Part shown: positions 1,207 to 38,056 of the stretch, piece by piece | Position numbering within the stretch: position 1 is the stretch's first letter | Layout: every line of letters begins with the position of its first letter | NCBI GenBank assembly: GCA_944358895.1 | Contig: CALVSB010000003.1 | Span: forward strand, 22,868 to 86,867 | Length of the DNA: 64,000 nucleotides | Reading direction: 5' to 3' | Source: an uncultured Bacilli bacterium | GTDB taxonomy: Bacteria > Bacillota_I > Bacilli_A > RFN20 > CAG-826 | Made by a program: the position numbers and the translations under genes | The notes under the pieces: generated by a model | What the model was told of the DNA's origin: nothing | Seen by the model: only the letters and a program-made list of their open reading frames with translations | Database searches by the model: none

Positions 1207-2541
1207 TTAGTTGGAAGCGTGCTTGCGGCGACGGACGAAGTAGAAGACGGAGAAGCCGAGAATCGAGACGAGGACGAGAGCCCCAGCCGTGATGCCGGCG
1301 ATGTTGGACGGATCGGAGACAAAGGTCGCGACGTAGCCGGCGTTTTCGTTGCTGTTTGCGGCCTCGAGGGTTTCCATCATCGCAAGCTTTTCAAGAGCAG
1401 TCGTCGTGATGGTGCGCTCACCAGTCACATAATAGTCGTCGTAGTTAGTGCTCGGACCAGCATATGCGTAATCGGAGAGGGTCACATCGGCTAGAGCCTC
1501 GCGTCCGCCAACCATAAGGTCCTCCCCAATCCAAGTTTCCGTAAGCTCGGTAGTGGCAAGATAACCGTTTGCTTCCGACCCAAGGCAAGAATAGTAGGCA
1601 GGAAGGACATAGGTGGCGAAGAAGTAAGGAGTGACCGAATTTGCTTTGAGTTTATAAGGATAAACGGCAGCGTCATCAAGAACGGTGTTCCACTCTCCCT
1701 TTTCGGCATTGTCGCCATTGGGCCAGCTAATGGTATGAATGTTAGCAAAATCCGATGCTGTCAAAACTTTTTTAGTGCTGGTTCCATCAACGTATTCAGC
1801 TAAATCCCAAATGTGAGCGGTCGTTACATAGTACTGAAGCCCTACGTAAGAAAGCGGTACATCAAAGTAGGCAAGATATGTACGGTCTTCGGCGGTCGCA
1901 ATCGTGTCCCCGCCTTCCGAGAGGGAACTCGTTGACGGATAGGCAGTAGCCGGAATTGCAATATCACCCTCAGCCGTCTCAAAGGTCAAGAACGTGAGGC
2001 AATCCGTCCGACCGCCTTGATGAAACCAATAGCGGGCATATTCGCTATTCAATTCAACATGCCTGTCGATCTTCAAACTATTATCTAGAGCCCCAATTTG
2101 ATTATTGTCATCAATGTATGCGTCGTAGTAAGCCGGTGATTCTTCGGTTATGCGGATGCCTTCGCCATCAATGGCAGCCAATTTCTGCGGATAGTTCGGG
2201 AAATTCCACGATTGCATTCCTCCGCTATCCGGCCAAGCTCCGTTGTAGATCAAGAATCCATCACAATTGGTTGGAATTTCAAACTCCGCAATACCAGTTT
2301 CGGCATCGTGGCCAATCATGGTAGCCTCACCATTTGTAATGCCAGTCCCCCACCAATAGCTACGCAAAGTAGCGCTGCCATTATTAGTGAATGTGTTGTA
2401 AACCTCATCGGAAATCTTGAAGTAAACTGAATACATGTCCGGGGAAGCAGCTTTGGTCTCAACGGCATTTCCGCCAATTCCAAAAGACGTCGCTAATAGA
2501 CTTAGTGCAAAAAGCAATGCTGCGGGTCCTGTTTTCTTCAT
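1207..2541 (-). CDS. Surface protein, paralog 1 of 3 (signal peptide plus C-terminal TM anchor)
   Basis: Start moved to the ATG at 2541 (MKKTGPAALLFALSLLATSFG is signal-peptide-like, with AGAGAGG upstream). C-terminus AGITAGALVLVSILGFSVFYFVRRRKHASN is one hydrophobic helix plus a basic tail. Shares the SCLGSEANGY block with the next two genes. Confidence 0.6.
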   Translation of the reverse strand: MKKTGPAALLFALSLLATSFGIGGNAVETKAASPDMYSVYFKISDEVYNTFTNNGSATLRSYWWGTGITNGEATMIGHDAETGIAEFEIPTNCDGFLIYNGAWPDSGGMQSWNFPNYPQKLAAIDGEGIRITEESPAYYDAYIDDNNQIGALDNSLKIDRHVELNSEYARYWFHQGGRTDCLTFLTFETAEGDIAIPATAYPSTSSLSEGGDTIATAEDRTYLAYFDVPLSYVGLQYYVTTAHIWDLAEYVDGTSTKKVLTASDFANIHTISWPNGDNAEKGEWNTVLDDAAVYPYKLKANSVTPYFFATYVLPAYYSCLGSEANGYLATTELTETWIGEDLMVGGREALADVTLSDYAYAGPSTNYDDYYVTGERTITTTALEKLAMMETLEAANSNENAGYVATFVSDPSNIAGITAGALVLVSILGFSVFYFVRRRKHASN

Positions 2542-2744
2542 TTCTGATACCTCTCTTAACATTCCAATTCTAGTGAAAGCGCTTGCATATAACAACAAGG
2601 ATGCAAATTTGGCTTGTTTTTTGAATACATTTTCAGAAAACCATCGAAACAGTTGTGGCAAAAATACATGCCCCCTTTTCTTGATTCGCATACTCATTTC
2701 CAAGCAATTGGCTGGAAAAGCAATGAGATTTTCAAGCAATTAAA

Positions 2745-2771
2745 ACAAAAAAGGCCGCGACAACACGACCT
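2745..2771 (-). terminator. Intrinsic terminator after paralog 2
   Basis: Minus strand GGUCGUG-uugu-CGCGGCC followed by UUUUUUGUUUU (plus-strand 2754-2771, A-run 2745-2753). Confidence 0.6.
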
Positions 2772-2831
2772 TTTGTGTCAACCGAACTTTTACAAAACCT
2801 CTTGATTGCTATATAAGGATTTTTTCTATAC

Positions 2832-3812
2832 TTAGTCAATCGGAAGTTCGACTTCTGGATGGGCTGCCATGTAAAGTTTTGACATGGTAACAAGCTTTTC
2901 ATTGGCATTGACAGTCCAATCCTTTGAAGCCGTCGTCCAAGAACCATCAGCCCCAAGAGAGGGATCATAGTCATGAATAGTTTCGGACGCGATGCCTGCT
3001 CCTGTAACATGTTTGTCCTTCCAGCCGTTGAATACTCCACTATTCTCGTTGTATGTCCACAAGAAGTTCTTTCCGGTGTAAGGAATGGCTTCATACCCGT
3101 TGACTGCACTATTGGAGCACGTGTTCAAGCCTTCAATGGCAAGAGCGGCGATATGAGAATCAATAGAATTTGCATGATTTCCGAAGCCAGCCGTGTGGTA
3201 CTCTTTCATCTCTCTATAGACAAACATCACCGAATTATCCAAATACTCTGTATCATTGTCGGACCGCCGGAATCTGCCGTCTGCTTGCTTTTCGAAACGG
3301 ACGTTAACTCCATTTATAGCCCAGCCGCTCTGATAGGTTCCGTTAAATGTCGAAGCGTTACTATCATAAGACGTGCCGATTTCTTTGTAATACTGGATGG
3401 TTACGTACATGTACGAGTGTTCTTCAAAGACCCATGCCGGAATGTCATAGTACCAGTAAGGACGATATGTGCCCCAACCGTTATTAACATCGGCGTAACC
3501 AAAGTCCGCTTCGCATGAATTCCACACAACCCCACTGGGCTGGGCAACATACTCCCAACTGCCCATATTTTCTTGCGCCTCGTGAATCCAGAGAGCTAAG
3601 TATCCGGCGCCCGACGCCCAAGCATTGTTAGCGTCACCCTTGTCAAGTGTTGTCCACAAGCGAACATTGCCATAGGTCGTTCCCGTGGTCTCCAGTTCAG
3701 CATTAACGCCCAAAAGGCTCCGATCCGCCACCTCGCTAGCCACAACGCCCCCGAGGGTTCCGATTGAGATCACCGCTGCCGCTAGGCAGATTCCAAGCAT
3801 CTTCTTGTTCAT
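2832..3812 (-). CDS. Secreted protein, paralog 2 of 3 (no C-terminal anchor)
   Basis: Start at the ATG at 3812 (MNKKMLGICLAAAVISIGTLGGVVA signal peptide). Contains ALAIEGLNTCSNSAVNGY, which aligns with the neighbouring paralogs. Confidence 0.6.
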   Translation of the reverse strand: MNKKMLGICLAAAVISIGTLGGVVASEVADRSLLGVNAELETTGTTYGNVRLWTTLDKGDANNAWASGAGYLALWIHEAQENMGSWEYVAQPSGVVWNSCEADFGYADVNNGWGTYRPYWYYDIPAWVFEEHSYMYVTIQYYKEIGTSYDSNASTFNGTYQSGWAINGVNVRFEKQADGRFRRSDNDTEYLDNSVMFVYREMKEYHTAGFGNHANSIDSHIAALAIEGLNTCSNSAVNGYEAIPYTGKNFLWTYNENSGVFNGWKDKHVTGAGIASETIHDYDPSLGADGSWTTASKDWTVNANEKLVTMSKLYMAAHPEVELPID

Positions 3813-3989
3813 AGGCAATGCCTCCGCAATGAAAACGAGTAAATTCCTTTTCACTGGTTCCATAAAATAGTGCAAGCGCTTTCAAATAACAAGACATTTG
3901 TTTAACAATTTCTTTAATGTTTTAAGGTTTCGGCCGCTTTGCAAGCTTTTCAGCGAAATAATCGGCGCCATCAAAAATGCAAACCATGC

Positions 3990-4014
3990 AAAAAAAGGAG
4001 CCGCTGATGGCTCC
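3990..4014 (-). terminator. Intrinsic terminator after paralog 3
   Basis: Minus strand GGAGCC-aucagc-GGCUCC followed by UUUUUUU (plus-strand stem arms 3997-4002 and 4009-4014, A-run 3990-3996). Confidence 0.7.
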
Positions 4015-5153: not shown

Positions 5154-6590
5154 TCAGGCGAACACTTCCTCGGCCAGCGTCGGGAAGTCGACATAGGGAT
5201 TCCGGTTCCCCTGCACCCCGAAGACCTTCTCGTTCCGCTCGCGCTCGCGGTCGGAAATCGGGTCTTCCTTGGCCCATTCGAGGAACATGTCGGTCGCCCA
5301 GTCGCTAAGCCCAAGCGGCGATGAATAGTCGAAGAGGGCATACGGCTGCCAGTCCCCAAATCCCATCTGCTGCTCATAGCAAGTAACAAAGTAGAAATGG
5401 ACCCGGGCGATGTCGCCCTTCCATTCGTCTCCCGGCTCGAAAACCGTCTCGGAGGGGCCGCCCGGATAGACGTTCGGTCCGAGCTTCGACCCGTTGGTCG
5501 TCTCGTAGGTCGGATCATCGACCTCGCCATAGGGATTGTCGTTCCGCCTCATGTTCGAGTAAGCATCGGCCGGCATGACCGAGAAGGCATCGGAATACAT
5601 GGGGTGGGCATCGTTGAAATAGGACTTCGGGATCACATGCTCGCGCTGGAGGCCTTGCCCCTCTTCCCCGGCCCCGGCTTTCCAGCCGTCGGCGGGCTTG
5701 TGTTTCTCTTTGTCGCTGTAGATGTCGTAGATGTAGCCATCGGGGTCGACATCAGTCACGGCATAGACGTCCATGAGATTGTTGTAGCTGAGTTGATCAT
5801 GGGACCTGATGGTTTTCCAGAAAGAAGTTTTGAGTTCGCTTCCCTCGAGATAGAGATTCACGTTCTTGTAATATTCCTGGGCTTCTCCGTCCAAGTGGTC
5901 ATATTCGCCGAAAAGCCCATCGGTCGGGCGGGGCAAGGACGAAGATGAAGATTCGCTGGTCGGCTCTTCCACCGAGCTGCCTCCCACAAGAAGGGTGAGA
6001 ACGACCTTGCAAATCATGACACGGCCCTTTACTTCCTGACCCAATGTCAAGGTCGAGGCCGCTAAATCGTCAGGTCCGTCCAAGTCTTCGAAATAGACAC
6101 AATAAGGATCGTCGCTCCCGTCGATGGCTGGCACGTCGGACCACGTGACATTCTTGTATTCGGGGTCGCCGCTCACGTCGGTATAAGCCGAAAAGGAAGC
6201 CGCGACGTCAGCTTCGTAGCGGTAGCAGTAAACACGCGCTTTCGAAATACGAACAGGTTCATAAAAACTAAATGTTATTTTGCCCGGGGTTGTAGAGGTC
6301 CCAAGACGAAGACCGCTGGGACTTTTATCGTAATAAGCCTTATTAGCCGATGCTGACCTGATTTCGATGCCACTATGTTGGATGTTTGCTAGGACCGGAG
6401 TATTGTTCTTAGAAAACTTGGCCGTCCCGAAGACGATATCCGCACACTCGACGGTCGTTAGCTCGGCCCCGTGGAGGCGGGCCGTCTCGGCCGCCTTCGC
6501 TCCCAAGCTAAAAAGCGCCACGGCGACGACCGCCAGGGCGCTGAAGATAAAGAAACGTCTATGCTCGCCTCGAAGGAATTGATCCGCCAT
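5154..6590 (-). CDS. Endonuclease I family (EndA/Bsn-like) extracellular nuclease with N-terminal signal-anchor
   Basis: C-terminal domain: REHVIPKSYF, DAFSVMPADAYSNMRRNDNPYGEV, FEPGDEWKGDIARVHFYFVTCY, QGNRNPYVDFP. N-terminal hydrophobic helix FFIFSALAVVAVALFSLG. Ser-rich linker. GAGGAGG Shine-Dalgarno upstream. Confidence 0.8.
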   Translation of the reverse strand: MADQFLRGEHRRFFIFSALAVVAVALFSLGAKAAETARLHGAELTTVECADIVFGTAKFSKNNTPVLANIQHSGIEIRSASANKAYYDKSPSGLRLGTSTTPGKITFSFYEPVRISKARVYCYRYEADVAASFSAYTDVSGDPEYKNVTWSDVPAIDGSDDPYCVYFEDLDGPDDLAASTLTLGQEVKGRVMICKVVLTLLVGGSSVEEPTSESSSSSLPRPTDGLFGEYDHLDGEAQEYYKNVNLYLEGSELKTSFWKTIRSHDQLSYNNLMDVYAVTDVDPDGYIYDIYSDKEKHKPADGWKAGAGEEGQGLQREHVIPKSYFNDAHPMYSDAFSVMPADAYSNMRRNDNPYGEVDDPTYETTNGSKLGPNVYPGGPSETVFEPGDEWKGDIARVHFYFVTCYEQQMGFGDWQPYALFDYSSPLGLSDWATDMFLEWAKEDPISDRERERNEKVFGVQGNRNPYVDFPTLAEEVFA

Positions 6591-6613: not shown

Positions 6614-8125
6614 CTAGCCAAAAATAGCTTCAGACAAAGAGGGGAAATCGACGAAGGGGTTGCGGTTCTTCTGATGGGAATAGACGGCGTTGTTGCGCTC
6701 GATTTCCTTTGGGGACACCGGGTCTTCCTCGGCCCAGGAAAGAAGCATCGACTGGGCCCAGCTCGAGAGCCCGAGGGCCGACGAGTAATTGAAGGAGGCG
6801 TACGATCCCCAGCCGCTTTTCATCTCGCTTGCGTAACAAGTGACGAAATAGAAATGGATCCGAGCAAAGTCGCCTTTGTATTCGTCGATCGGCTCGAAGA
6901 CGGTGCCGGAGTAACCGGGATAGGAACACTTCCCGAGCTTGGAACCGTTCCCCGACGTATAGGTGGCCGTTCCGACCTCGCCGAAGGGATAGTTGCTCCG
7001 CCGGTTGTTGACATAGCCGTCGGTCGGGATGACCTGGTGGGCATCCGCCACCATCGGGGAACGCTCGTCGAAGACGCTTTGGGGGATCGTGTGCTCGCGG
7101 TTGACGCAATCCCCTTCCCCGCCGTAATTGCCGCATTTATCGTCGTTGATCCGATGGCGGATGTTGCTATACATGTCCCAGTAGTTGCCCTTCCCGTCGT
7201 CGTCGCTGTCCTCGTAGACATTCCAAAGGCCGTTGTAGCCGACGTTGGTGTGCGAATGGATGATCGAGGTGAATTCGCTCTTAAGGGAAGCCCCGCTCCT
7301 CGAGAGGTCGGCAGAGGCGTAATAGGAACGGACGGAGGAAGGAAGGGCGGCCAGCTCGTCCCCGAGGTCCCCGCTTTCCCCGCCCGCGGGGAAACTCTCG
7401 GAACTCTCTTCCGAAGAAGGAGGGGCCGGCGGCTCGCTCGAAGAGGAGGAATCCCCGCCCGAAGGCGCGCCCTCGAGGTAGTAGCCGATGGCGATTTCGC
7501 AAACGTTGACCCGCTCGCGTCCGTTCTCGTTGTAGAGGGAAAGGGAAGACACTTCCCCTTCGCTTGAGAGGCCATCGAAGGACACGGCATTGCTTCCCTC
7601 ATCCGTTCCGAGGGTCGGAACGCTCGTCCAATCGACCGCGGCCGGGGCGGCATAGACCTCACCGCCGAGCTTTAGCCCGAGGCGGGCGGTATCGTTCCCG
7701 TACTGGTAGCAATAGACGTCGATACTCTCGAGGACATAAGAAGAATCGAAACTAAGAGTCAATTCCCCCGCCTTGCTGCTGCTCCCGAGGCGCAGGGCGT
7801 TGTTCCCGCCTTCTTCCGGGGCATAGGCATTGGTGCCGCTCAGCGAGGCGACGATGCTCTCGCCGCTTTGGAGATACGAATCGGGACCGACGATGGTGCT
7901 CACCGTATTGTCGGACACCGTGCCGAAAGTGATCCGGCAGGTCGCGAGGACCGGTTCGGCCGCTTCGGAAGAGGAGGAACCTGAGCCAGACTCCGAAAGC
8001 GAGCTCCCGGCCGAGCTTTCGAGGACCGGCTCCGAGGAGGAACCGCCGAGCGAGGAGCCAAGGAAGCCGTCGCAGGAAGCGAGAAGCAGGCCGAAAAGGG
8101 CCGTGAGGACCAGTTGTCTTTTCAT
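6614..8125 (-). CDS. Endonuclease I family extracellular nuclease, lipoprotein paralog
   Basis: Lipobox LLLASCDG. REHTIPQSVF, DAHQVIPTDGYVNNRRSNYPFGEV, FEPIDEYKGDFARIHFYFVTCY, QKNRNPFVDFP. The N-terminal domain is homologous to that of 5154..6590. Confidence 0.8.
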   Translation of the reverse strand: MKRQLVLTALFGLLLASCDGFLGSSLGGSSSEPVLESSAGSSLSESGSGSSSSEAAEPVLATCRITFGTVSDNTVSTIVGPDSYLQSGESIVASLSGTNAYAPEEGGNNALRLGSSSKAGELTLSFDSSYVLESIDVYCYQYGNDTARLGLKLGGEVYAAPAAVDWTSVPTLGTDEGSNAVSFDGLSSEGEVSSLSLYNENGRERVNVCEIAIGYYLEGAPSGGDSSSSSEPPAPPSSEESSESFPAGGESGDLGDELAALPSSVRSYYASADLSRSGASLKSEFTSIIHSHTNVGYNGLWNVYEDSDDDGKGNYWDMYSNIRHRINDDKCGNYGGEGDCVNREHTIPQSVFDERSPMVADAHQVIPTDGYVNNRRSNYPFGEVGTATYTSGNGSKLGKCSYPGYSGTVFEPIDEYKGDFARIHFYFVTCYASEMKSGWGSYASFNYSSALGLSSWAQSMLLSWAEEDPVSPKEIERNNAVYSHQKNRNPFVDFPSLSEAIFG

Positions 8126-8184: not shown

Positions 8185-10074
8185 CTAATCCTTCTTGAAG
8201 CCGGGCATCCGCTTTTCCCGCGAGACGCGGTAAGCCTCGCCCGATGGGTCTTGCCAGCTATGGTCGCGAAGGAGGGTCGGGAGGAGGGAGAGGAAGGCTT
8301 CGTCGACGAAGTCGGCGTGGAACGCTTTGTCGTAGGCGACCGGGACCATCGCCGGCAGGAGTTCTTGCTCAAGGTAGAAGAACTCCTTCCTCAGGAGCTG
8401 GTTGGGCGAGCAGACCGAGACGAGGCAGCGGAAGCCGCCGTCGCGGAAAAGGCAGGAGGCGGCATAGCATTCGTCGGCCGAGTTATAGACGCCGGCCTCC
8501 CCCATGTAAAGGGCGTTCGCCCTCTCGCCGTGAAGGCACTTCCGGGGGATTTTCCTTTCCTTGCCGAGGAGATAGGCGATCCCGGCGCTCGAAAGGGAGG
8601 CGCGGTCGGCTTTGCCCTTCCCGTTCGGGCGGAGGTGCTTGCTCCCGGGAACGTAAACGGCGGCCTTTTCCCCGGAATCGACGAGCGACCAGTAGAGTTC
8701 GTACCCCCGGTCGAGGCGGGCCCGGAATTCGCCGCCCGGGGTCCCGTCTTCCCGGAGCGGATGCTGGGCCGCGATCTCGATGAGGGTCCCTTCGTAGCTC
8801 CCTTCTTCGGCGTTCTCCCTACGGTCCTGTTCCTTCCTGGCCTTGGCCCATTTCTCCTCGTAATGGCGGTAAGCCTCCTCGATTGGGAGGGAGGAAGCGT
8901 TCTTTTCGTAGAGGCCCCGCGGGGAGGAAATCACCCGCAAATCGAGGCTATCCCCCGCCTTTTCCGACAGCTCAACGAGGGAAGAGGCGTAAAGAAGAAC
9001 GAGCGATGGCAGGTTTTTCTTCCCTTCGTTTTCCTTCTTTCCCCGGAAGACGAGGGAGGGGGTCCCGTCGGCCGTCCGGGCCGGCGGGAGGGTCAAGGTG
9101 ATCCACCCTTCGAGCAATCCGCCCTCCTTCTCCGCGAGGAAGGCCGTTTGCCGGATCAGGCCGTGGGCCGGATAGGCTTTCACCTTCCCGGCTCCCGGCC
9201 CATCGGCGGCCAGGGCGATTTCGCGGAGGAAGCCGAGAGAGGAGGCGATTTCTCCGTCGAGGCGGACGCGGTTCTGCCTCGCTTCGTCCTCCCCTTTGCC
9301 GAGCGATTCGATGCCGGCTACCCCTTCGAGGTCGCGGCTCGAGGTCGCCCCGAGGACGGCATGGAGGTTCGCTCCCCCTTTCACCGCGGCGGAAAAGAGG
9401 TCGCGGTTCGTCTTGAGGAAGGAGGAACCGGTCGTCGAGACGAAATAGATGTCCTTGGCTCCCTCGAGGGTCGAGCGGAGGGAGGAAAGGGTCGACGGCG
9501 TCCCGTCGTCGAAGCGCTCGATCCCGCTTTTCTCAAGATAAGGGAAAAGGGAAAGGTAGCGTTCCTTGCCCATCCCGAGCGGCGGAAGGAGGGAAAAGGC
9601 CGTCCCCTTGGAAGCGAAGGAAGAAAAGAAGGCATCGGCGGCCGGAGAAGCCTTTCCCTTGAGGTCGAAGGCCGAGAAAAAGCGCTCGGCCGCCCCTTTC
9701 TCCTCGGCATTGACGTAAGTGAGGCCCGGGAAGAGGGGCTCGAGCGGCGTCACGAGGGAAGAGGACGCGGCGATCGGGACGACGAGCTTCTTCCCCTTCG
9801 TCCGGAAATAAGAAGCCAAGGAAGCCTCGTAGAGGCAAAAGGGCTTGCGAAGGTAGTCACTGGTGAGGAAAAGGATGATGCAATCGGCTTCCTCGATGGC
9901 CCTGGCCAAGGAAGAAAGGACCTCGTCGCCCGGCCGGACCCCGACCGCGTAGGCGTTCGAGGAATAGAAAAGGTCCTTTCCCTCGTCGAGGGCGGGGTCG
10001 ATTTCCCTAAGGACCAGGAGGAACGCCCGGAGGAAGGAATCGTCGCTCGAGGCGTGGGAAAGGAAGTATTTCAT
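8185..10074 (-). CDS. Three-module cytosolic protein: N-terminal TIR-like domain, uncharacterised middle region, C-terminal DUF218/YdcF-like domain
   Basis: N-terminus: KYFLSHASSDD ... VRPGDEV ... IEEADCIILFLTSDYLRKPFCLYEASLA (TIR_2-like strand/helix order, Glu in the expected position). C-terminus: IEIAAQHPLREDGTPGGEFRARLDRGYELYW..AAVYVPGS..LSSAGIAYLL..IPRKCLHGE..GVYNSADECY..FRCLVSVCSPNQLLR follows the DUF218 order. ATG overlaps the upstream stop (ATGA at 10071-10074). Confidence 0.55.
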   Translation of the reverse strand: MKYFLSHASSDDSFLRAFLLVLREIDPALDEGKDLFYSSNAYAVGVRPGDEVLSSLARAIEEADCIILFLTSDYLRKPFCLYEASLASYFRTKGKKLVVPIAASSSLVTPLEPLFPGLTYVNAEEKGAAERFFSAFDLKGKASPAADAFFSSFASKGTAFSLLPPLGMGKERYLSLFPYLEKSGIERFDDGTPSTLSSLRSTLEGAKDIYFVSTTGSSFLKTNRDLFSAAVKGGANLHAVLGATSSRDLEGVAGIESLGKGEDEARQNRVRLDGEIASSLGFLREIALAADGPGAGKVKAYPAHGLIRQTAFLAEKEGGLLEGWITLTLPPARTADGTPSLVFRGKKENEGKKNLPSLVLLYASSLVELSEKAGDSLDLRVISSPRGLYEKNASSLPIEEAYRHYEEKWAKARKEQDRRENAEEGSYEGTLIEIAAQHPLREDGTPGGEFRARLDRGYELYWSLVDSGEKAAVYVPGSKHLRPNGKGKADRASLSSAGIAYLLGKERKIPRKCLHGERANALYMGEAGVYNSADECYAASCLFRDGGFRCLVSVCSPNQLLRKEFFYLEQELLPAMVPVAYDKAFHADFVDEAFLSLLPTLLRDHSWQDPSGEAYRVSREKRMPGFKKD

Positions 10075-11360
10075 TGCCTTCCTTCGAATTCGGCCTTGAG
10101 GCGGGAGGTGACTTCCTCGGCCTTGGCCACGATCTCTTCGACCGGGGTGCCGACGTCGAACTGCCCGTCGAGATAAAGGATCTTCCCCTCGACCATCGTC
10201 ATCCGGACGTCGAGCTTGCTCCCGGCGTAGACGAGGTTGTTGGGAATGTCGTTGAGGGGGCGCATATCAGGTTTATCGAGATCGATGAGCACGAGGTCGG
10301 CCCGCTCCCCTTCCTTCACGTAGCGGGCGTCGAGGAGGCCCATCGCGATGGAACCGCCGACCGTCGCGGCATAGAGGGCATCGGTTCCCTTGAAGGCCGA
10401 GGGATCCATCGTCCTTAGTTTCTGGAGGACGGAAGCGAGGCGCATCTCATAGAAGAAGTCGAGGCCGTTGTTGCTGCCCGGGCCGTCGGTCCCGATGGCG
10501 AGGTTGACCCCGGCGTCGAGGACGTCGGTGAGGGGCGCGATGCCGCTGGCGAGCTTGCTATTGGAGCCGGGGCAGGTCACGAGGGAGCAGCCGTGCTTTT
10601 TGTAGATGGCGATGTCGCTCCGCGAGAAGGCGACCCCGTGGAAGCCGCCGCCGCCATAATCGAGAAGGCCGAGCGACTCGGCGTACTCGACCGGGTCGAG
10701 GCCATGGTGGCGGGCCTTGCAGCCCTCGTACTCGCTATAGGTCTCGGAGGTATGGGAATAGATCGGGCACTTCAGCTTGTGACTGGCCTTCGAAAGCTCG
10801 ACGAGGATGTCCTCGGAGCAGGTGTACTCGGCGTGGAAGCCGAGCTGGTAGCTGACCAATGGGTTGCCGTCATTGATCTTGCGGTAGCTTTCGACCATCT
10901 CGGCGACCGACTCCCGCTCCTTCGTCACCGTCCCGAGAAGGACGGCCTTGAAGCCCATTTCCTTGGCGGCTCTCGCCATCTCGAGGGGGTTGTAGTACAT
11001 GTCGAAGCAAGCCGTGATGCCGCTTGTGAGATACTCGAGGATAGCGAGCCGCGAAAGATAGTATTGATCCTCGGGCTTGATGAGGGCCTCGAGGGGGAAG
11101 ATCCGCTTGAAGAGCCAGTCGTGGAGGGGGAGGTCGTCGCTATAGCTCCGGGCGAAGGTCATGGCGCTATGGGTGTGGGCGTTCTTGAAGCCCGGGAGGA
11201 GGAGCCCGCCCCGGCAGTCGACCGTCTTGTCGACGCCCTTGGATGGGAGGTTCTTCCCGATTTTCTTGATGGCCCCGTATTCGACGAGGACGTCGCCTTC
11301 GACGATTGAGAAACCCTTCTCGAGGGAGAGGATCCGCGCGTTCTTGAGTAAAGTCTTCAT
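10071..11360 (-). CDS. mtaD: Amidohydrolase-superfamily deaminase, 5-methylthioadenosine/S-adenosylhomocysteine deaminase-like
   Basis: GFKNAHTHSAMTFARSYSDDLPLHDWLFKRIFPLE, HTSET, AIGTDGPGSNNGLDFFYEM. Start set at the ATG at 11360 (MKTLLKNARIL) behind GGTGG. Confidence 0.7.
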   Translation of the reverse strand: MKTLLKNARILSLEKGFSIVEGDVLVEYGAIKKIGKNLPSKGVDKTVDCRGGLLLPGFKNAHTHSAMTFARSYSDDLPLHDWLFKRIFPLEALIKPEDQYYLSRLAILEYLTSGITACFDMYYNPLEMARAAKEMGFKAVLLGTVTKERESVAEMVESYRKINDGNPLVSYQLGFHAEYTCSEDILVELSKASHKLKCPIYSHTSETYSEYEGCKARHHGLDPVEYAESLGLLDYGGGGFHGVAFSRSDIAIYKKHGCSLVTCPGSNSKLASGIAPLTDVLDAGVNLAIGTDGPGSNNGLDFFYEMRLASVLQKLRTMDPSAFKGTDALYAATVGGSIAMGLLDARYVKEGERADLVLIDLDKPDMRPLNDIPNNLVYAGSKLDVRMTMVEGKILYLDGQFDVGTPVEEIVAKAEEVTSRLKAEFEGRQ

Positions 11361-15511: not shown

Positions 15512-16894
15512 TTAATCATCAGCATCAACAATTTTCCAATAGCCAGCTTTGTTGGATCCGACTCTGACAATCAAGGACGACTTCCTGAATTTTTTCATTG
15601 CTTTCTGAACAGTCGACAGGGAAACATTGGCAACCTCCGAAATTTCATCTTGGGTCGACCTTGGATTTTCCCGAATCGCAAACAAAATCTTCATCTCGGT
15701 TTTGCTTAGCCGATCAGCAATCTTATCCATCTCATCCTTGAACGAGTGCTTCCAGTTGTAGGGAATCGTAACGACAATGCAGTCTTCGCCAATCTTAAAT
15801 GCCTTCCGGCCGAAATAAGAAACAATAAGCGGATTTCCTTTGCCGGTTCTTTCGCTTAGATGGGTGGCCAGAAAAATAGACGATAGTTCTTCATTGACGG
15901 GAACGCTCCGGCCGTTATAGAAGCCTTCGACCGTTTGGCTCGGGGCCAGGGACGAGAAGGATGTTATTTCGACGCGGTCGTCGAAGAACGTGATCATCGG
16001 GGCCGTCCGCCGGAGCCATGAGTTATGAATGAAGGCATTTTTCACTGCCTCGTTGAAACAATCTTGGTTGAAAAGAGGAACGTCCGTCCGGATGCCGGTA
16101 TGGACGTTCTCCACCGCTTTTGGCATGTTGATGGTGTCGGAGTAATCGATGATGCGGTCAATGACCGAAACAAGGCTTTGATTTCCAAATTCCTTAACCG
16201 AAAACAATTTGCTTGCCTTATCTGATCCCGAAAAGATGGCAACTCGAACGGGGATCTCGCCGTTATCTGCTAGAAAGCAGGCCAGCATGTTGTACTTGCC
16301 GTCCGGGCAAAACAAATGCATGTTCACCTTGAAAGTGGCGTCGTTGAAAAGAAGGCCTTTCCCAAGGTAATAGGTTTTGAGTTGGTTGAACGTGAGATCT
16401 TGGACGGGCGACTCGGTATTCACCATCGTCGGATAGCCCCGGAGCAAAACGTTCCAGAGGAGTCCTTCCCTTTCCGGATATTTCTCGAGGGAAGCGATGC
16501 TCGAGCCAATGCGCGAATACCTTATTTTGTTAAAGGCCGTCGGGACCGTTTTGGCGCTCGGAATAACCAAGGCGACCACACGTTTGCCATTCATGGTAAC
16601 TTCTTGGAAACGAAAGGCAATCGATGGCTTTAGATTTCGGGCCAAGTAGTTCTGAAGCGGTTCGCTTTTATAATGTCCAAACGGGTTTACGGATGTGCCT
16701 ACGACCTCATGCGTTTTATCGTCGATGCCCCAAACGAGGTAGCCGTAATCTTTGCCTACGATGGCCGCCGAGTTCGACAAAGCCGAAATGTAGTGGCCGA
16801 TTCTCTCTTCTTCGAACCAATCGACCTTAAATTCAAACCACTCCTCTTCGTCTGTTCTGCTGAGGAGGTCAGAAATTACATCAACCAAATTCAT
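15512..16894 (-). CDS. AlbA_2 (divergent AAA / Schlafen-type) domain protein with C-terminal winged-helix HTH; putative transcriptional regulator
   Basis: N-terminus: EEEWFEFKVDW..IGHYISALSNSAAIVGKDYGYLVWGIDDKTHEVVGT. C-terminus: LSKTEMKILFAIRENPRSTQDEISEVANVSLSTVQKAMKKF. The gene is AT-richer than its surroundings. Confidence 0.65.
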   Translation of the reverse strand: MNLVDVISDLLSRTDEEEWFEFKVDWFEEERIGHYISALSNSAAIVGKDYGYLVWGIDDKTHEVVGTSVNPFGHYKSEPLQNYLARNLKPSIAFRFQEVTMNGKRVVALVIPSAKTVPTAFNKIRYSRIGSSIASLEKYPEREGLLWNVLLRGYPTMVNTESPVQDLTFNQLKTYYLGKGLLFNDATFKVNMHLFCPDGKYNMLACFLADNGEIPVRVAIFSGSDKASKLFSVKEFGNQSLVSVIDRIIDYSDTINMPKAVENVHTGIRTDVPLFNQDCFNEAVKNAFIHNSWLRRTAPMITFFDDRVEITSFSSLAPSQTVEGFYNGRSVPVNEELSSIFLATHLSERTGKGNPLIVSYFGRKAFKIGEDCIVVTIPYNWKHSFKDEMDKIADRLSKTEMKILFAIRENPRSTQDEISEVANVSLSTVQKAMKKFRKSSLIVRVGSNKAGYWKIVDADD

Positions 16895-17627: not shown

Positions 17628-19489
17628 GCTTCCTCCTTCGCGACCATCTCGTAGCCTTCGACGATGTCGCCTTCCTTCACGTCGTTGTAGCCGGCGATCC
17701 GGAGGCCGCATTCATAGCCCTGGCGGACTTCCTTCACGTCGTCCTTGAAGCGCTTGAGCGATTCGAGGCTTCCTTCGTAGACGATGGCGCCGTTCCTAAG
17801 GAGGCGGACCTTTTCCCCGGCCTTGATCTCGCCCGAGGTGACGTAGGAACCGGCGACGGTCCCGACATGGGTGATCTTGTAGATGTGGCGCACTTCGGCC
17901 TGGCCGGTGACTTTCTCCACCACTTCGGCCTTGTACTTGCCCTTGATGGCATTCTTCATCTCGTCGAGCAGTTCGTAGATGATCCGGTGGAGCCGGATTT
18001 CGACGCCCTGCTCCTCGGCGAGGGTCTTGATCCGGGCATCCGGGCGGATGTTGAAGCCGTAGATGAGGGCATGGGAGGCGCTGGCCAGGAGGACGTCGTT
18101 GTCGGAGATGGCCCCGGCCGCGGCGCTGATGACCTTGACCCGGACCTTGTCCTCGCTCAGCTTCTCGAGGGAAGCCTTGAGGGCCTCGGCCGAACCGTCG
18201 GTATCGGCCTTGACGATGACGTTGATGTCCTCAACTTGCCCGGCCGTGACGAGGTTATTGAGGTCGGATAGCGACATGGCCGAGGTCTTCGAACGGGTCT
18301 TCTCGAGCTTTTCGAGGGCCCGCTTCTCGGCGATTTCCTTGGCTTGCCGCTCGGTCGGGAAGGCCATGAAGCGGTCGCCGGCCGCCGGGACCGAACTGAG
18401 GCCGGTGACGGCCACCGGGGTCGATGGCCCAGCCGTTTTCAAGACCTGGCCGTTTTCGTTGGTCATCCGCCGGATCTTGCCGTAGATATCGCCGACGACC
18501 ACGAAGTCGGCCGCGCTCAGGGTGCCGTTTTGGACGAGGAGGGTCGCCTTCGGGCCTTCGCCCTTGTCGAGGTTGGCCTCGAGGACCGTGCCGATGGCGT
18601 AGCGGTTCGGGTTGGCCTTGAGCTCCATCATCTCCGCCTTGAGGAGGATGGCGTCGAGGAGGTCGTCAAGCCCTTGCTTCGTCTTGGCGCTCACCTCGAC
18701 CATGATGACGTCGCCGCCGTAATCCTCGGCGATGACGTCGTGGGCCATGAGTTCTTCCTTGACCTTGCGGGAGTTGGCGCCCGGCTTGTCCATCTTGTTG
18801 ATGGCGACGATGATCTGGCTATTGGCCGCCTTCGCGTGGTCGATGGCCTCGATCGTCTGGGGCATGACGCCGTCGTCGGCCGCGACGACGAGGACGACGA
18901 TGTCGGTCACCGAAGCCCCGCGGGCCCGCATCGCCGTGAAGGCCGCGTGCCCCGGCGTGTCGATGATGGTGATCTTCTTGCCATTATGCTCTTTCTGGTA
19001 GGCGCCGATGGCCTGGGAGATGCCGCCGGCTTCCTTCCCGGCGACGTTGGAATGGCGGATGGCGTCGATGATCGAGGTCTTGCCGTGGTCGACGTGGCCC
19101 ATGACGGTGACGACCGGGGGCCGCTCGACGAGGGAAGAGGGATCGTCTTCGATCTCGATTTCCTCGAAGTGGGCCTCGTCCACCACCTTTTCCTTCTTGA
19201 AGTCGTAGCCGAACTCGAGGCAGATGGTCCCGATCATCTCGTCGTCGAGCACCTGGTTGATGGTGACGGCCTTCCCTTGGAGGAAGAGGAACTTGATGAT
19301 ATTGGGAACCGGGATGTTGATGGCTTCGCTCAGCTCGCCAACGGAAAGGGGCTTCGAGTAGATGAAAACGCCGCCGTTGACCTTGGCAAAGGTTTTCTTC
19401 TTTTCGCTCGGGGCATGCTCGACGTTGTTGATCCGCGCCTTCTGGGCTTGGTTCTTCTTCGAGAAATGGCGGTTGTTGTTCTTCTTCAT
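17624..19489 (-). CDS. infB: Translation initiation factor IF-2 (short-N-terminus form, 621 aa)
   Basis: [34 protein letters not shown], plus the C-terminal IF2 domains. Confidence 0.95.
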
Positions 19490-19782
19490 ACTTTCTCCTT
19501 CCCAAGGCCCTTGAGGGCCTTTTTGTCGGTAAGCAGGGCCAGCGAGACCTCGTCCCGCCCGAGGGCGTGGCCGAGTTCTTCCTTGCTATAGGGGGCCTCG
19601 TAGACGGGTATGCCGCGGCTTTCGGCCTTGGCAACCAGGCGTTTGGCCTCGCCGCTACTCGCGTCTTTGGCTTTGATGAGGAGGACCCCATGGCGGAATG
19701 AGGCCTCGATGCGGCTGCCGATCGTCAGCTTGTCGGCCCGGAAGAGGATGCCGAGGAAGCCGAGCTCACGCGCGTAGTCCAT
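19486..19782 (-). CDS. ylxQ: L7Ae-family RNA-binding protein YlxQ
   Basis: Conserved position between ylxR and infB. LGILFRADKLTIG..GVLLIKAKDAS pattern. ATGA overlap with infB. Confidence 0.7.
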   Translation of the reverse strand: MDYARELGFLGILFRADKLTIGSRIEASFRHGVLLIKAKDASSGEAKRLVAKAESRGIPVYEAPYSKEELGHALGRDEVSLALLTDKKALKGLGKEKV

Positions 19783-19999
19783 CTTTCTCCTCCTCGCTAA
19801 GTTCCCGGCGGAGGATCCGCCGGAAGGCCTTTTCGGCTTTGACGGGATCGCTCCCCTTCGAAAGGTAGTAGCCGCGGCCGGGTAGCCGCTGCTCCGGATC
19901 GTAGAGGAGCTTTCCCTCCTTCACCACGAAGCGGCGAAGCTCGGCCTTCGGGTAGCGTTTCCCGTCGGACACGTCCTTTCGAAAGGGTGTTTTCTCCAT
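19766..19999 (-). CDS. ylxR: YlxR/RnpM (DUF448) RNA-binding protein
   Basis: PKAELRRFVVKEGKLLYDPEQRLPGRGYYL. Conserved position after nusA. Confidence 0.75.
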   Translation of the reverse strand: MEKTPFRKDVSDGKRYPKAELRRFVVKEGKLLYDPEQRLPGRGYYLSKGSDPVKAEKAFRRILRRELSEEEKDGLRA

Positions 20000-20002
20000 T
20001 GG

Positions 20003-21817
20003 TTACTTCCCGTCGTCGTCGTAGTAGCTGTCGTACTGGTCGTAGTCGCTTTCGTCGATGTCGTCGTCGAGCGATTCCTCGCTCTCCTCGGCCTCGATCT
20101 CGGCGAGTTCTTCGTCGCTATAGATCGGAAGGACGTTGGCCGGCATCTCGCTCGGCTTGACGCGCTCGACTTCCTCTTCGGAAATGCGGCGCGGACGGCG
20201 CTTTTTCTCGCCGCCGCGGCGGATCGGCTCGTCTTTCTTCTCGGAAAGTTCCTTCTCGAGGTCCTCGAGGGTAGTCGTCGTCTTGACTTCGGTGTGGACA
20301 ACCGGCTTGGCCGGCTTTTCGACGGCCGGGGCGGCCGGGGTTTCCGCGGCCTTCGGGGCTTCTTCGGCCTTCGTTTCGACCGCCGGTTCGGCCTTCGGGG
20401 CCTCGGCCTTTTCTTCGGCCGGGGCGGCCGGGGTTTCCGCTGCCTTCGGGGCTTCTTCCGCCGGAACTTCCTCCGGCTTCTCTTCTTCGGCCTTCATCGT
20501 GGCCTTTTCGGCCGCGGCCTTGAGGGAAGAGGCAAGGTATTCGGCCTTGTCCTTCTCTTTCTTGGCCTTGGCGGCTTCTTCCTTGATCTCTTCGATCGGG
20601 GTGTAGACGAGGCCGTCTTCGGTCGCCTCGCTGAGCGGAACGATGTCGATGTCCCAGCCGGTGAGCTTCTTGGCCAGGCGGACGTTGGCCCCGCGGCGGC
20701 CGATGGCGAGCCGCGTGTCGCCGTCATTGACGATGACGGTCGCGACCGGGCGGGCATTCTCGTCGTCGCCCTCCCCTTCCATCGCGACGCCGAGGACCTG
20801 GGCCGGGCGGAGCGATTCGGCAATGTAAAGGGGCATGTAATCGCTATAGGCGATGATGTCGATCTTTTCTTTGTCCTTGCCGTTGCCGAGTTGTTGGACG
20901 ATTTTCTGGATGCGGCTCCCCTTGGGGCCGATGCAAGCGCCGGTCGGGTCGATGTCGTCGTCCTTGCTATAAACGGCGACCTTGCTGCGGATGCCGGCAT
21001 CCCGGGCAATGCCCTTGATGACGACGGTGCCGTCGTAAATTTCGTGGATTTCCTCTTCGAAGAGGCGCTTGAGGAAGCCGCTAGAGGCCCGGGTCACCTC
21101 GATCTGGGGCCCGCGGATGAGTTTGCCTTCCGGAGTGCGCTGCTCCTTGACTTCCTGAAGGTAGACCTTGATCGGGTCGCCGACCTTGAAAATCTCATCG
21201 CCGATCAGCTCCTTGGCCGTCAGTTCCACGACGGTGTGGCTGCCGATGTTGACGGAAACGCTCCGGTCGCCGGCCTTTTCGACCGTGCCGGTGAGCATCT
21301 CGCCGATATGGTCCTTGTACACTTCGTAAAGGGCGGTCTGCTCGGCCACCCGGATGTTGCTGCGAAGAGCGCTCTGGATGCCGTTGACCGTGATCTTGCG
21401 GAGGCTTTCGATCGGGCAATAGATCGGGAAACGGTCGCCCGGCTTGAGATTCTTGACGCTGCTTTCAACAAGGGTAAGGAGGTACTTGAGCTGATTGCGC
21501 TCGTCCTTGTCTTTGGTCTCGGCGATCTTCTCTTCGATGTCAGCGCGTTCCTCGTCGGCCGTGTCGATCGCGTCTTCGACGGTGATTTCGAGATAGTCAT
21601 CCTCGACTTCCTCGACGACGTCCTTGATCTGGGCAATCACGATGGTTCCGTGCTCCTCGTCGAGGGTGACGTCGACGACGGCGTCGTCGCCGCCGCCGAG
21701 GCTTCGTACGTAGCCGCGGGCGATGGCTTCCTTGATGGCGGCAAGGACGTTGTCGACTTCAATGCCTTTGCTTTCGGCGACCAGTTTGGCCGCGTTTAGG
21801 AATTCTTGGTAATTCAT
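20003..21817 (-). CDS. nusA: Transcription termination/antitermination factor NusA with ~200-aa low-complexity C-terminal extension
   Basis: N-terminal, S1 and KH region (GPKGSRIQKIVQQLG, IGRRGANVRLAKKLTGWDIDI), then an Ala/Glu/Lys/Pro-rich repeat and an acidic tail. Confidence 0.9.
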   Translation of the reverse strand: MNYQEFLNAAKLVAESKGIEVDNVLAAIKEAIARGYVRSLGGGDDAVVDVTLDEEHGTIVIAQIKDVVEEVEDDYLEITVEDAIDTADEERADIEEKIAETKDKDERNQLKYLLTLVESSVKNLKPGDRFPIYCPIESLRKITVNGIQSALRSNIRVAEQTALYEVYKDHIGEMLTGTVEKAGDRSVSVNIGSHTVVELTAKELIGDEIFKVGDPIKVYLQEVKEQRTPEGKLIRGPQIEVTRASSGFLKRLFEEEIHEIYDGTVVIKGIARDAGIRSKVAVYSKDDDIDPTGACIGPKGSRIQKIVQQLGNGKDKEKIDIIAYSDYMPLYIAESLRPAQVLGVAMEGEGDDENARPVATVIVNDGDTRLAIGRRGANVRLAKKLTGWDIDIVPLSEATEDGLVYTPIEEIKEEAAKAKKEKDKAEYLASSLKAAAEKATMKAEEEKPEEVPAEEAPKAAETPAAPAEEKAEAPKAEPAVETKAEEAPKAAETPAAPAVEKPAKPVVHTEVKTTTTLEDLEKELSEKKDEPIRRGGEKKRRPRRISEEEVERVKPSEMPANVLPIYSDEELAEIEAEESEESLDDDIDESDYDQYDSYYDDDGK

Positions 21818-21836
21818 CTTTCTATCCTCTTTAGAA

Positions 21837-37948: not shown

Positions 37949-38003
37949 GAGCCTTCCTCGAACAAACGTATTTTAAAGGTATGATCCTTCACTGGGGATA
38001 TTG

Positions 38004-38039: not shown

Positions 38040-38056
38040 CTTCATTCGCTCAACAA

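Follow-up and report, generated by a model that had tools for sequence, protein, structure and literature searches.

A TIR, PLD-like and DUF218/YdcF-like fusion protein: a candidate single-gene defence by NAD depletion, with a putative sensor core of a new type

TIR domains and domains resembling them serve as effectors in several bacterial immune systems. Among solved structures, the closest relative of the TIR domain described here is that of SpbK, the abortive-infection protein of Bacillus subtilis ICEBs1 (PDB 9phb; profile E=1.6e-13). SpbK provides defence as a single protein, as is proposed for the present one, with which it shares the FISHSSKD...YxxSxxCLxE motifs and a Glu at the catalytic position; however, its TIR is C-terminal, behind another type of N-terminal domain, it has neither a PLD-like nor a DUF218-like domain, and the likeness is confined to ~95 residues. 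Thoeris (ThsB TIR plus an effector) and SPARTA (TIR-APAZ plus a short Argonaute) are further forms of TIR-based bacterial immunity, as is proposed here, but both are defined by a partner gene (effector or Argonaute), and no such partner is conserved at the loci of the present family. We know of no described prokaryotic defence system made of a single-gene TIR protein with a PLD-like plus DUF218-like core. In 2026, DUF4062/NIR was shown to act as a TIR-like NADase effector in three single-gene anti-phage systems, Swarozyc, Evangelion and Vulcan (10.64898/2026.05.01.722283, 10.64898/2026.06.25.731849, 10.64898/2026.09.04.749371). These follow a like design, in which one polypeptide combines an N-terminal NADase bearing a catalytic Glu with a sensing or auxiliary region at the C-terminus. 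In Swarozyc this region is a helical stalk whose activator is the portal protein of the phage, in Evangelion a short AUX region and in Vulcan a set of HEAT repeats; none has been described with a PLD-like plus DUF218-like core, although sister branches of the present family do have DUF4062. In Metis (MisA/MisB), the effector directly senses the mononucleotide m6dAMP and depletes NAD+, an alternative type having a TM effector instead (10.1101/2025.11.05.686725); this is a mechanistic precedent for the sensing of an infection-derived nucleotide coupled to NAD+ depletion. Its domains (a PUA-like sensor and a calcineurin-like phosphoesterase) are nevertheless unrelated, and it comprises two genes, with a phosphatase. 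As for DUF218, YdcF is reported to bind S-adenosylmethionine (SAM), the other known members act in envelope biogenesis, and SanA has a putative Thr-His-Glu catalytic triad (T125/H149/E182) that is experimentally required (PMC12176290).

The window analysed here is a stretch of 64,000 nucleotides from an uncultured Bacilli bacterium. The gene of interest and its parts are as follows (all on the minus strand):

8185..10074 (-): whole gene, TIR / PLD-like / DUF218-like protein, 629 aa (ORF, full-length homologs, AF2 model)
9697..10074 (-): TIR domain, predicted NADase effector, residues 1-126 (PF13676, PDB profile search, Foldseek)
9826..9828 (-): Glu83 codon, catalytic-Glu position of TIR NADases, motif FCLYEAS (alignment)
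9523..9696 (-): helical linker, residues 127-184, poorly conserved (predicted secondary structure; mean pairwise identity 23.5%)
8950..9522 (-): middle alpha/beta domain, PLD-like fold without HKD, residues 185-375 (Foldseek)
8788..8949 (-): second linker, residues 376-429 (model; mean pairwise identity 23.1%)
8188..8787 (-): divergent DUF218/YdcF-like Rossmannoid domain, residues 430-629 (PF02698 in homologs, model)
10071..10074 (-): ATGA overlap of this start codon with the stop codon of the upstream amidohydrolase gene (sequence)
10071..11360 (-): MTA/SAH / 5'-deoxyadenosine-deaminase-like amidohydrolase, upstream neighbour (Pfam, NCBIfam)

The ORF starts with ATG and ends with the stop codon at 8185-8187. 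Its product is a cytosolic, three-domain, uncharacterised protein, which occurs in identical sequence, and with identical synteny, on six public contigs. The AF2 model of the 629 residues has a mean pLDDT of 82.2. A first-pass annotation made from the sequence had proposed three parts (a TIR, an unnamed and possibly PLD-like alpha/beta domain, and a DUF218-like domain), the absence of TM segments and of a signal peptide, and a host-like GC content. Profile and fold searches recovered the three parts; Kyte-Doolittle hydropathy (19-aa windows, maximum 1.44) indicated neither a TM segment nor a signal peptide; and the composition of the gene (GC 0.628, GC3 0.81) matched that of its neighbours.

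The N-terminal domain is a genuine TIR and looks catalytically competent, since it matches Pfam PF13676 (TIR_2) above the gathering threshold (37.7 bits versus 28, residues 4-126) and its invariant Glu83 aligns with the corresponding residue of solved bacterial defence TIRs; on these grounds it is predicted to be an NADase. This agrees with the TIR_2 assignment, and with the Glu at the catalytic position, made in the first-pass annotation. TIR_2 was present in 20 of 20 family members and Glu83 was likewise invariant (20/20 sequences), its alignment column holding the Glu of SpbK (CLNEMG), Cat1 (CWDELE) and PdTIR/BtpA (ARELD). The PDB profile search with the TIR returned SpbK, at the E value given above, and Cat1 (1.1e-8); Foldseek with the model matched TIR structures, and weak ThsB_TIR matches were seen in 3 of 20 members. 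PF13271 (DUF4062) did not match the window protein, which has a canonical TIR_2 instead. The sole match in PADLOC-DB v2 was spbK (E=2.2e-5, over TIR residues 2-83), NCBIfam returned no match for the family protein, and the literature searched held no co-mention of DUF218 with DUF4062 or of YdcF with anti-phage activity; the reports found on DUF218 and phages concern SanA/ElyC envelope biology. The earlier statement that the architecture could be matched to no described system is upheld by these searches, the resemblance to spbK being limited to the TIR. SPARTA TIR-APAZ chains were the top Foldseek matches of the whole model, with an RMSD of 22-28 A and a TM of about 0.17-0.28. A SPARTA-like TIR-APAZ protein was ruled out on account of the RMSD of >20 A (only the TIR part aligned) and the lack of an Argonaute partner. 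Nor did the loci look like Thoeris, their flanks being heterogeneous and diverse loci having no gene family in common there.

The middle domain appears to be PLD-like at the fold level. Using the full-length model as the query, its matches in Foldseek were TrmB (3qph, 5.1e-4; 2f5t, 2.9e-3), TrmBL2 (5bpi, 3.6e-3), the NgoAVII R-protein (4rct, 2.7e-3) and polyphosphate kinase (PPK; 2o8r, 2.6e-3), all of which we take to be PLD-fold proteins; the probability was 1.0 for TrmB, TrmBL2 and the NgoAVII R-protein, and the TM-scores to PLD-fold structures were kept low by the use of the whole protein as the query. Outside the TIR, the full-length model thus found its best fold matches in the ligand-binding domain of TrmB type, the N-domain of the NgoAVII R-protein and the C-domains of PPK. 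No sequence-level relationship to TrmB or other PLD-fold proteins was found: single-sequence and profile searches of PDB sequences with the middle domain gave no match, no Pfam family was assigned to it (PLDc_2 matched only 2 of 58 members, with E=0.03), and the HxK(x)4D motif was found in none of 58 middle domains. The suggestion that this domain might be PLD-like therefore stands for the fold but not for the HKD motif. Its conserved motifs are STTG (213-216), DVAEIE (GVAGIE in the window protein), LIRQT and TLPPxR, in which E256, R308 and P331, respectively, of the last three are invariant; judging from the secondary structure, the invariant Arg of LIRQT probably lies where the HxK would be. 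In the model, the linker that follows contains a low-confidence loop (385-399) and a long helix (398-420).

Of all parts of the protein, the C-terminal domain shows the strongest constraint, with a mean identity of 50.6% and 34 of 196 columns invariant, compared with 30.7% and 6 invariant columns in the TIR. In 62 of 62 sequences there is no variation at Q437-H438, R453, P476-G477, H480, Y530, E535-C536, Q559, H586, E592 and R622, and the DUF218 motif order noticed in the window protein proved near-invariant across these 62. The assignment to DUF218 itself holds for the fold; profile scores of homologs lie on both sides of the gathering score, and the window protein did not match PF02698 at E<=1. 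Thirteen of 20 homologs matched this profile at E<=0.01, the match falling in one and the same region each time and mostly covering profile positions ~11-110; in a set of 10 homologs the scores were 18.8-32.3 bits, with only two above the gathering score of 27.6. A model of residues 400-629 in isolation (pLDDT 91.7) had YdcF/DUF218 proteins as its top three matches in BFVD (E=2.4e-6, 9.3e-4 and 1.6e-3; TM 0.58-0.62, normalised to the target). Searching the PDB with the isolated C-terminal model, Foldseek gave nothing below E=1e-3 and only weak HUP/PP-loop matches, while single-sequence and profile searches of PDB sequences with this domain gave no match. The hhalign probability for the C-terminal alignment was 0.3 against E. 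coli YdcF alone and against a 15-sequence enterobacterial profile, which is a narrow one (homologs of >=59% identity). The motif order is collinear with SanA, and a MAFFT profile alignment, in which the low identity makes the mapping tentative, places the SanA triad T125/H149/E182 at S/T532, Q559 and E592. The family thus keeps the Glu in 62 of 62 sequences but has a Gln in place of the triad His in all 62, possesses invariants of its own (Q437-H438, H480, E535-C536 and H586) and, unlike YdcF, SanA and ElyC, is a cytosolic protein fused to TIR and PLD-like domains. In Rossmannoid folds, ligands bind at the C-terminal ends of the strands. The invariant residues are placed at such ends, after beta-strands 1, 2 and 4, which, together with a conservation far above that of the TIR, points to a conserved pocket for a small molecule more than to a rapidly evolving surface for protein recognition.

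At E<=1e-30 the family comprised 207 clusters (50% identity) among 1.84 billion (1.84e9) representatives, and 131 matching stretches were found in 185,579 species genomes. Its distribution is sporadic (Clostridia, Erysipelotrichales, Bacteroidales, Spirochaetota and Actinomycetota; 4-5 phyla, with gut and rumen habitats in common), its tree is partly incongruent with taxonomy, and one member is carried by a mobilizable megaplasmid. The N-terminal module is interchangeable on a constant core, being a TIR, DUF4062/NIR, a wHTH or a TM helix. At least 10 loci fuse the middle plus C-terminal core to DUF4062, and two fuse it to an OmpR-type wHTH (Trans_reg_C), as does possibly R. albus pRUMAL01; in Streptococcus, among others, the core carries one TM helix at its N-terminus. 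The prevailing outputs are TIR and DUF4062, the wHTH forms being a small minority. In Streptomyces and Kitasatospora the genes are split into DUF4062-mid and DUF218-like parts. Further partners fused to the C-terminal domain (P0060, P0088, P0111 and others) had no Pfam annotation. Stand-alone versions of ~225 aa containing only this domain are common in bacteria and also occur in phages, the copies on phage contigs having all the invariant residues, although no homolog was found among the INPHARED complete phage genomes. The exchange of TIR, DUF4062 and TM modules while the core stays constant follows the pattern of effector modules in defence systems such as Metis, with its NADase and TM-effector types, and a stand-alone domain borne by phages is what would be expected if the domain handles a molecule relevant to phage-host conflict.

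The first-pass annotation had noticed the ATGA overlap with the MTA/SAH-deaminase-like gene, which is indeed present in the sequence, with a ribosome-binding site (GAAGGAAGG) upstream of the coupled start. The amidohydrolase gene probably starts at the ATG at 11360, giving 429 aa, and a 429-aa gene is called on the identical contigs. An equal 4-nt overlap exists at locus L001 (3685-4974 and 4971-6860), whose family member is 78% identical, and at L167/L168, and synteny with L001 and L018 is conserved. The overlap gives a translational coupling that is specific to the window lineage. From this coupling, adenosyl-nucleoside chemistry had been proposed; however, a survey of the neighbourhoods of homologs showed that the amidohydrolase adjoins a family member only in the window and at L001, while at one unrelated locus a copy lies 2.8 kb off on the opposite strand. 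Conversely, none of 80 loci around amidohydrolase orthologs contained a family member, and the closest of them (L083, L085 and L086) keep the order PP-loop-truB-ribF-amidohydrolase with the TIR gene missing. The link is thus local to the window lineage and does not define a conserved partner; a general linkage was ruled out by these 80 deaminase loci and by ~78 other family loci that lack it. All-against-all clustering of the flanking ORFs of 80 family loci revealed no partner gene in common, Pfam and PADLOC scans of 108 flanking proteins no conserved partner, and a scan of the neighbours of stand-alone C-terminal-domain genes none either. Since no neighbour is conserved in 80 loci, the unit is a single gene. 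The view that the gene is a lineage-core function and not a mobile defence gene also gave way, as the family is rare and sporadic, shares no neighbourhood, and can swap its TIR for DUF4062/NIR; the host-like GC implies long residence in the window lineage and nothing more.

The reading that we favour, to which we would give a probability of about 0.45, is that a single gene here encodes a defence protein that depletes NAD and has a sensor core of a new type. It would be a stand-alone, single-polypeptide conflict protein, probably of anti-phage or abortive-infection type, in which the TIR acts as the effector, most likely hydrolysing NAD+ via Glu83. The HKD-less PLD-like plus divergent DUF218/YdcF-like core, a putative sensor rather than a second enzyme, would hold the TIR inactive until it bound, and possibly processed, a conserved small ligand containing a phosphate or a nucleotide and arising in infection or stress; binding might then drive the assembly required for TIR NADase activity. 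In the window lineage, the gene would have been inserted just after the housekeeping truB-ribF-deaminase block and be expressed by read-through and ATGA coupling. Several observations count against a defence role: PADLOC contains no member, INPHARED no homolog, the gene lies in a housekeeping context (truB, ribF, the deaminase and endonuclease I), to one gene of which its translation is coupled, and its GC is host-like. With no signal-producing partner gene, the ligand is purely hypothetical, and the 22 invariant C-terminal residues (His, Glu, Cys, Gln, Arg) resemble an active site just as much as a sensor pocket.

By an enzymatic explanation, rather unlikely in our estimation, the DUF218-like plus PLD-like part would be the real catalytic machine, modifying a nucleotide, cofactor or sugar-phosphate, with the N-terminal modules as accessory, regulatory or targeting elements. 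The protein would then be a bifunctional small-molecule enzyme acting on, for example, NAD-derived or adenosyl compounds, not primarily immune, and able to cooperate with the deaminase in the window lineage. The C-terminal domain is indeed the most conserved and has invariant His, Glu, Cys, Gln and Arg residues, two of the three SanA-triad positions (S532 and E592) are chemically kept, stand-alone forms exist in bacteria and phages as expected of autonomous enzymes, the weak PDB fold neighbours are PP-loop/adenine-nucleotide alpha-hydrolase enzymes, and the ATGA coupling is kept in window-lineage contigs from several samples. On the other hand, the deaminase link is missing elsewhere, no locus has a conserved metabolic neighbourhood, a sporadic distribution is atypical of a metabolic enzyme, an invariant Gln replaces the triad His, and the N-terminal domains are the very ones that defence systems employ as NADase effectors. 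An envelope role like that of SanA/ElyC, on undecaprenyl-linked intermediates, fits the DUF218-superfamily membership at the profile and fold levels and the SanA-like N-terminal TM anchor of some members, but is very improbable: the window protein lacks both a TM segment and a signal peptide, the strongly basic residues past the TM helix of the anchored forms predict, by the positive-inside rule, cytoplasmic domains, hhalign finds no similarity to the YdcF profiles, the triad His is lost, and a cytosolic TIR fusion would make no sense for a periplasmic function.

Since wHTH-fused and effector-less (TM-anchor and stand-alone) forms exist, a regulatory or metabolic family also fits. In the regulatory version, the protein would serve normal physiology as a one-component regulator or a stress sensor, with no dedicated role against phages, its core sensing a metabolite and its output being DNA binding (wHTH) or NAD turnover (TIR/DUF4062). 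The layout of TrmB (wHTH plus ligand domain) resembles that of the wHTH plus core variants, the best fold match of the middle domain is the TrmB ligand-binding domain, and the window gene sits in a housekeeping context with host-like GC; yet only two examined loci, and possibly pRUMAL01, have a wHTH, TIR and DUF4062 dominate, a constitutive NADase output is hard to square with routine regulation and the distribution is sporadic; we regard this version as quite improbable. About equally improbable is Thoeris-like signalling, in which the TIR would make a second messenger on infection (a cADPR isomer, His-ADPR or similar), read by the fused DUF218-like domain in cis or in trans, or by an effector whose gene lies elsewhere. 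Bacterial TIRs are known to generate signals, the ThsB_TIR matches point the same way, YdcF, a DUF218 relative, is reported to bind the adenosyl compound SAM (PMC12176290), and a 2025 survey of Thoeris lists 29 putative effector types. Thoeris is, however, an operon of TIR plus effector, whereas no adjacent effector gene is conserved here; core-only, wHTH and TM versions exist without a signal generator, and the best TIR relatives are the NAD-depleting SpbK and Cat1, not ThsB.

If the single-gene defence reading holds, the family would be an undescribed anti-phage family and a new sensor architecture for TIR and NIR(DUF4062) NADases, and it would tie to immunity the DUF218/YdcF fold, so far associated only with envelope homeostasis and SAM binding. 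A wider and more tentative proposal, doubtful as a whole, takes the HKD-less PLD-like plus DUF218-like pair as an unrecognised, widely portable immunity sensor, which would detect a nucleotide- or phosphate-containing infection molecule and might switch on a fused TIR NADase, DUF4062/NIR NADase, membrane helix or DNA-binding domain; the phage stand-alone copies would then perhaps be a counter-defence, sequestering or destroying the molecule sensed. This would provide the first biochemical handle on the ligand of a cytosolic DUF218 pocket; were the enzymatic explanation true, a new DUF218 activity, located in the cytosol, would be defined by the family. The effector swaps, split genes and phage-borne domain copies amount to natural 'experiments' that make the question of sensor and ligand directly testable, and members are plentiful among Clostridia, Bacteroidales and Streptococcus of gut and rumen, hosts with few experimentally characterised defence systems. 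Most genes flanking the family members are ordinary housekeeping genes, and the association with defence genes, counted without a background, is at best modest. The anecdotal PADLOC matches in some flanks were to MzaA, HEC-06, PDC-S23, Csn2 and IetA, and additional TIR proteins are encoded in the flanks of L021 (two of them), L017, L020 and L043.

The TIR gene occupies positions 8185-10074 of the window (minus strand) and specifies a 629-aa protein from an ATG start codon that overlaps, as ATGA, the TGA that ends the upstream amidohydrolase gene (which is MTA/SAH-deaminase-like); GAAGGAAGG lies just 5′ of this start. The amidohydrolase ORF as listed begins with a TTG at 11378; the gene calls of identical contigs render 429 aa, which fits an ATG at 11360 (MKTLLKN...). 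Pfam matched TIR_2 at residues 4-126 of the TIR protein (37.7 bits; gathering score 28), an NCBIfam scan of the protein returned no match, and the sole PADLOC match was to spbK (E = 2e-5), at the level of the TIR domain. The protein lacked hydrophobic segments (Kyte-Doolittle hydropathy at most 1.44), and the GC content of the gene (0.628; GC3 0.81) was similar to that of its neighbours. Since the ORF, Pfam, hydropathy and GC/GC3 results all agree with it, the first-pass annotation described the gene accurately, including the ATGA overlap, TIR_2, the lack of a hydrophobic segment and the neighbour-like GC. TIR_2 was matched in all 20 aligned family members, and E83, invariant among them, shares a column with the Glu of SpbK (CLNEMG), Cat1 (CWDELE) and PdTIR/BtpA (ARELD); the closest solved relative of the domain was SpbK (1.6e-13). 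With TIR_2 above its gathering score and an invariant Glu at the catalytic position, the TIR assignment made earlier holds.

The rest of the protein is formed by a middle and a C-terminal domain, together referred to as the core. The middle domain had no Pfam match and no PDB sequence match. In the model of the whole protein (mean pLDDT 82.2), its fold neighbours were TrmB, TrmBL2, the NgoAVII R-protein and polyphosphate kinase, all of them PLD-fold proteins. The HxK(x)4D motif was found in the middle domain of none of 58 members; E256, R308 (in LIRQT) and P331 are invariant.

The C-terminal domain had been proposed to be DUF218/YdcF-like. The window protein itself lies below the reach of PF02698, but 13 of 20 relatives matched it at E<=0.01, always over the same profile region and with scores (18.8-32.3 bits) around the 27.6-bit threshold. 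The isolated domain was modelled with a pLDDT of 91.7 and a pTM of 0.91. No convincing neighbour was found in the PDB, the best being PP-loop/adenine-nucleotide alpha-hydrolase enzymes (E>=6.6e-3); in a viral structure library, the best three matches were all annotated as YdcF or DUF218 (2.4e-6, 9.3e-4 and 1.6e-3). An hhalign comparison with E. coli YdcF profiles did not match the domain. In a MAFFT profile alignment SanA was collinear with it, T125, H149 and E182 of SanA tentatively falling on S/T532, Q559 and E592; this SanA triad is required, as determined by mutation (PMC12176290). The PF02698 matches in relatives, the fold matches and the SanA alignment therefore uphold the earlier call, save for the missing PF02698 match in the window protein: the domain is a divergent branch of the DUF218 superfamily with a rewired pocket. 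Invariant in 62 of 62 sequences, whatever their architecture, were Q437-H438, R453, P476-G477, H480, Y530, E535-C536, Q559, H586, E592 and R622. These residues come after parallel beta-strands in the model, and we infer that they would sit where Rossmannoid domains bind ligands.

An HMM search of the ORFs at 80 genomic loci (loci and contigs are given L-numbers here) revealed the core in several contexts.

Contexts of the core
TIR + core: about 38 loci
DUF4062 + core: e.g. L038, L040, L050, L051; Pfam E down to 2e-30
OmpR-type winged helix + core: L035, L041
Single N-terminal TM helix + core: Streptococcus, Staphylococcaceae and others; hydropathy 1.8-2.4, basic residues following the helix
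Split, DUF4062-middle-domain gene + DUF218-like gene: Streptomyces, Kitasatospora

In the split loci (L047, L049, L069, L074 and L078), a gene for DUF4062 plus the PLD-like domain (375-448 aa) directly precedes a second gene, which is DUF218-like (227-285 aa). This naturally occurring arrangement is evidence of joint action by the two core domains. The C-terminal domain was also found alone (about 225 aa).

A word-indexed search gave 21 clusters, each of 600-675 aa and alignable over its full length; the only public name among the family records was 'TIR domain-containing protein'. An exhaustive HMM search gave 207 clusters at E<=1e-30 among 1.84 billion representatives, and among 185,579 species genomes scanned there were 131 matching stretches; the TIR/core family is thus rare. 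Its hosts are chiefly gut and rumen Clostridia, along with Erysipelotrichales, Bacteroidales/Prevotella, Spirochaetaceae, Streptococcus, Streptomyces/Kitasatospora and Coriobacteriia. TIR-type members form a deep tree (30-60% identity) that agrees with taxonomy only in part: Clostridia branches enclose Spirochaete and Erysipelotrichaceae copies, and the sister of the Solobacterium copy is an Oscillospiraceae copy. Relatives were also present on phage-like contigs and on a plasmid.

L163:7905-8543 (also on L164 and L165): 212-aa stand-alone homolog of the C-terminal domain, phage-like contigs
L082:6515-8212: non-TIR family member, 565 aa, 'hypothetical protein' (WP_013483453.1), Ruminococcus albus 7 plasmid pRUMAL01

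The three IMG/VR contigs bearing the 212-aa homolog (88-113 kb) also encode DNA primase and nucleotide-kinase PHROGs. The homolog retains every invariant motif (LIEVAAQHPL, YVPGSRH, SEDEC, CSPGQ and FH..E) and may act against defence or in nucleotide metabolism; none of the complete phage genomes in INPHARED contained a homolog. Plasmid pRUMAL01, from a cultured strain, is a 420-kb mobilizable megaplasmid in which the WP_013483453.1 gene lies close to parA/parB and mobC.

Clustering of all flanking ORFs yielded no gene family common to unrelated loci, and the 108 nearest neighbours of TIR-type loci were heterogeneous and chiefly housekeeping (Pfam). Further TIR proteins were encoded close to members in L017, L020, L043 and, twice, in L021, a TIR-rich cluster in which both lie less than 8 kb from the family member at L021:3021-4892.

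L021:7287-9269 and L021:10116-12545: further large TIR proteins, 660 and 809 aa, Spirochaetaceae MAG

MzaA, HEC-06, PDC-S23, Csn2 and IetA were each matched once by PADLOC in the flanks. Together with the nearby TIR proteins, these matches are at best modestly suggestive of an association with defence.

A metabolic link to the deaminase-like gene had also been suggested. The amidohydrolase gene adjoins a family member only in the window and in L001 (a 78%-identical relative), and a family member was present at none of 80 metagenomic loci bearing amidohydrolase orthologs (45-67% identity), which speaks against such a link. The three closest ortholog loci keep PP-loop-truB-ribF-amidohydrolase and diverge beyond it; the order in the window lineage (the window, L001, L018 and six contigs with an identical protein) is truB-ribF-amidohydrolase-TIR-endoI-endoI. 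Since the block is conserved without the TIR gene in relatives and the order is constant in the window lineage, the TIR gene is an accessory insertion bordering these conserved housekeeping genes and has been present in this lineage for a long time; the proposal of a lineage-core function was not supported.

TIR, DUF4062 and a TM helix replace one another on a constant core, no partner gene was found and the distribution is sporadic; all three features suggest a conflict protein that works alone. The TIR domain would be an NAD-depleting effector and the core its control module, a role supported by the domain-wise conservation: mean identity was 50.6% for the C-terminal domain (34 of 196 columns invariant), versus 33.4% for the middle and 30.7% for the TIR domain. 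This difference argues that what the core recognises or works on is a small, conserved molecule and not a phage protein that varies. The main rival explanation is that the pocket also catalyses, beyond binding; the conservation pattern would suit a molecule acted upon as well as one recognised. For a defence NADase with a novel sensor, our preferred reading, the sequence evidence suggests a probability of roughly 0.45.

Three 2026 preprints show DUF4062/NIR to be a TIR-like NADase that provides the effector function in Swarozyc, Evangelion and Vulcan, each a single-gene defence, and in Avs proteins (10.64898/2026.05.01.722283, 10.64898/2026.06.25.731849, 10.64898/2026.09.04.749371); the core of the TIR family is described in none of them. 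In Metis, which has NADase and TM-effector types, a defence effector directly senses an infection-derived mononucleotide (10.1101/2025.11.05.686725). DUF218 proteins elsewhere act in envelope homeostasis (SanA, ElyC) or bind SAM (YdcF) (PMC12176290). Among the papers searched, none combined DUF218 with DUF4062, or YdcF with anti-phage; the few containing both DUF218 and phage dealt with SanA/ElyC envelope biology, and apparent matches for DUF218 that concerned DUF2188 were rejected.

Other features were seen around the TIR gene. Directly downstream lies a tandem pair of paralogous Endonuclease I genes (PF04231), also conserved in L001, L018 and L167; each protein begins like a lipoprotein and carries a Ser-rich N-terminal extension of about 250-280 aa.

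5154-6590 and 6614-8125, minus strand: Endonuclease I pair
15512-16894, minus strand: 460-aa ORF, about 5 kb from the TIR gene

The 460-aa ORF has markedly lower GC (0.479; window 0.583), and an identical public contig annotates it as SLFN_AlbA_2 + HATPase_c_4 + HTH_24. It is probably a regulator or defence-associated gene gained by horizontal transfer. GC drops to 0.45 at 2001-4000, and AT skew reaches -0.24 to -0.34 at 18001-22000, across two minus-strand ORFs of ~600 aa. A block of GC about 0.52 at 36001-42000, which may be an island, contains the only tRNA of the window (tRNA-Thr, 41489-41562).
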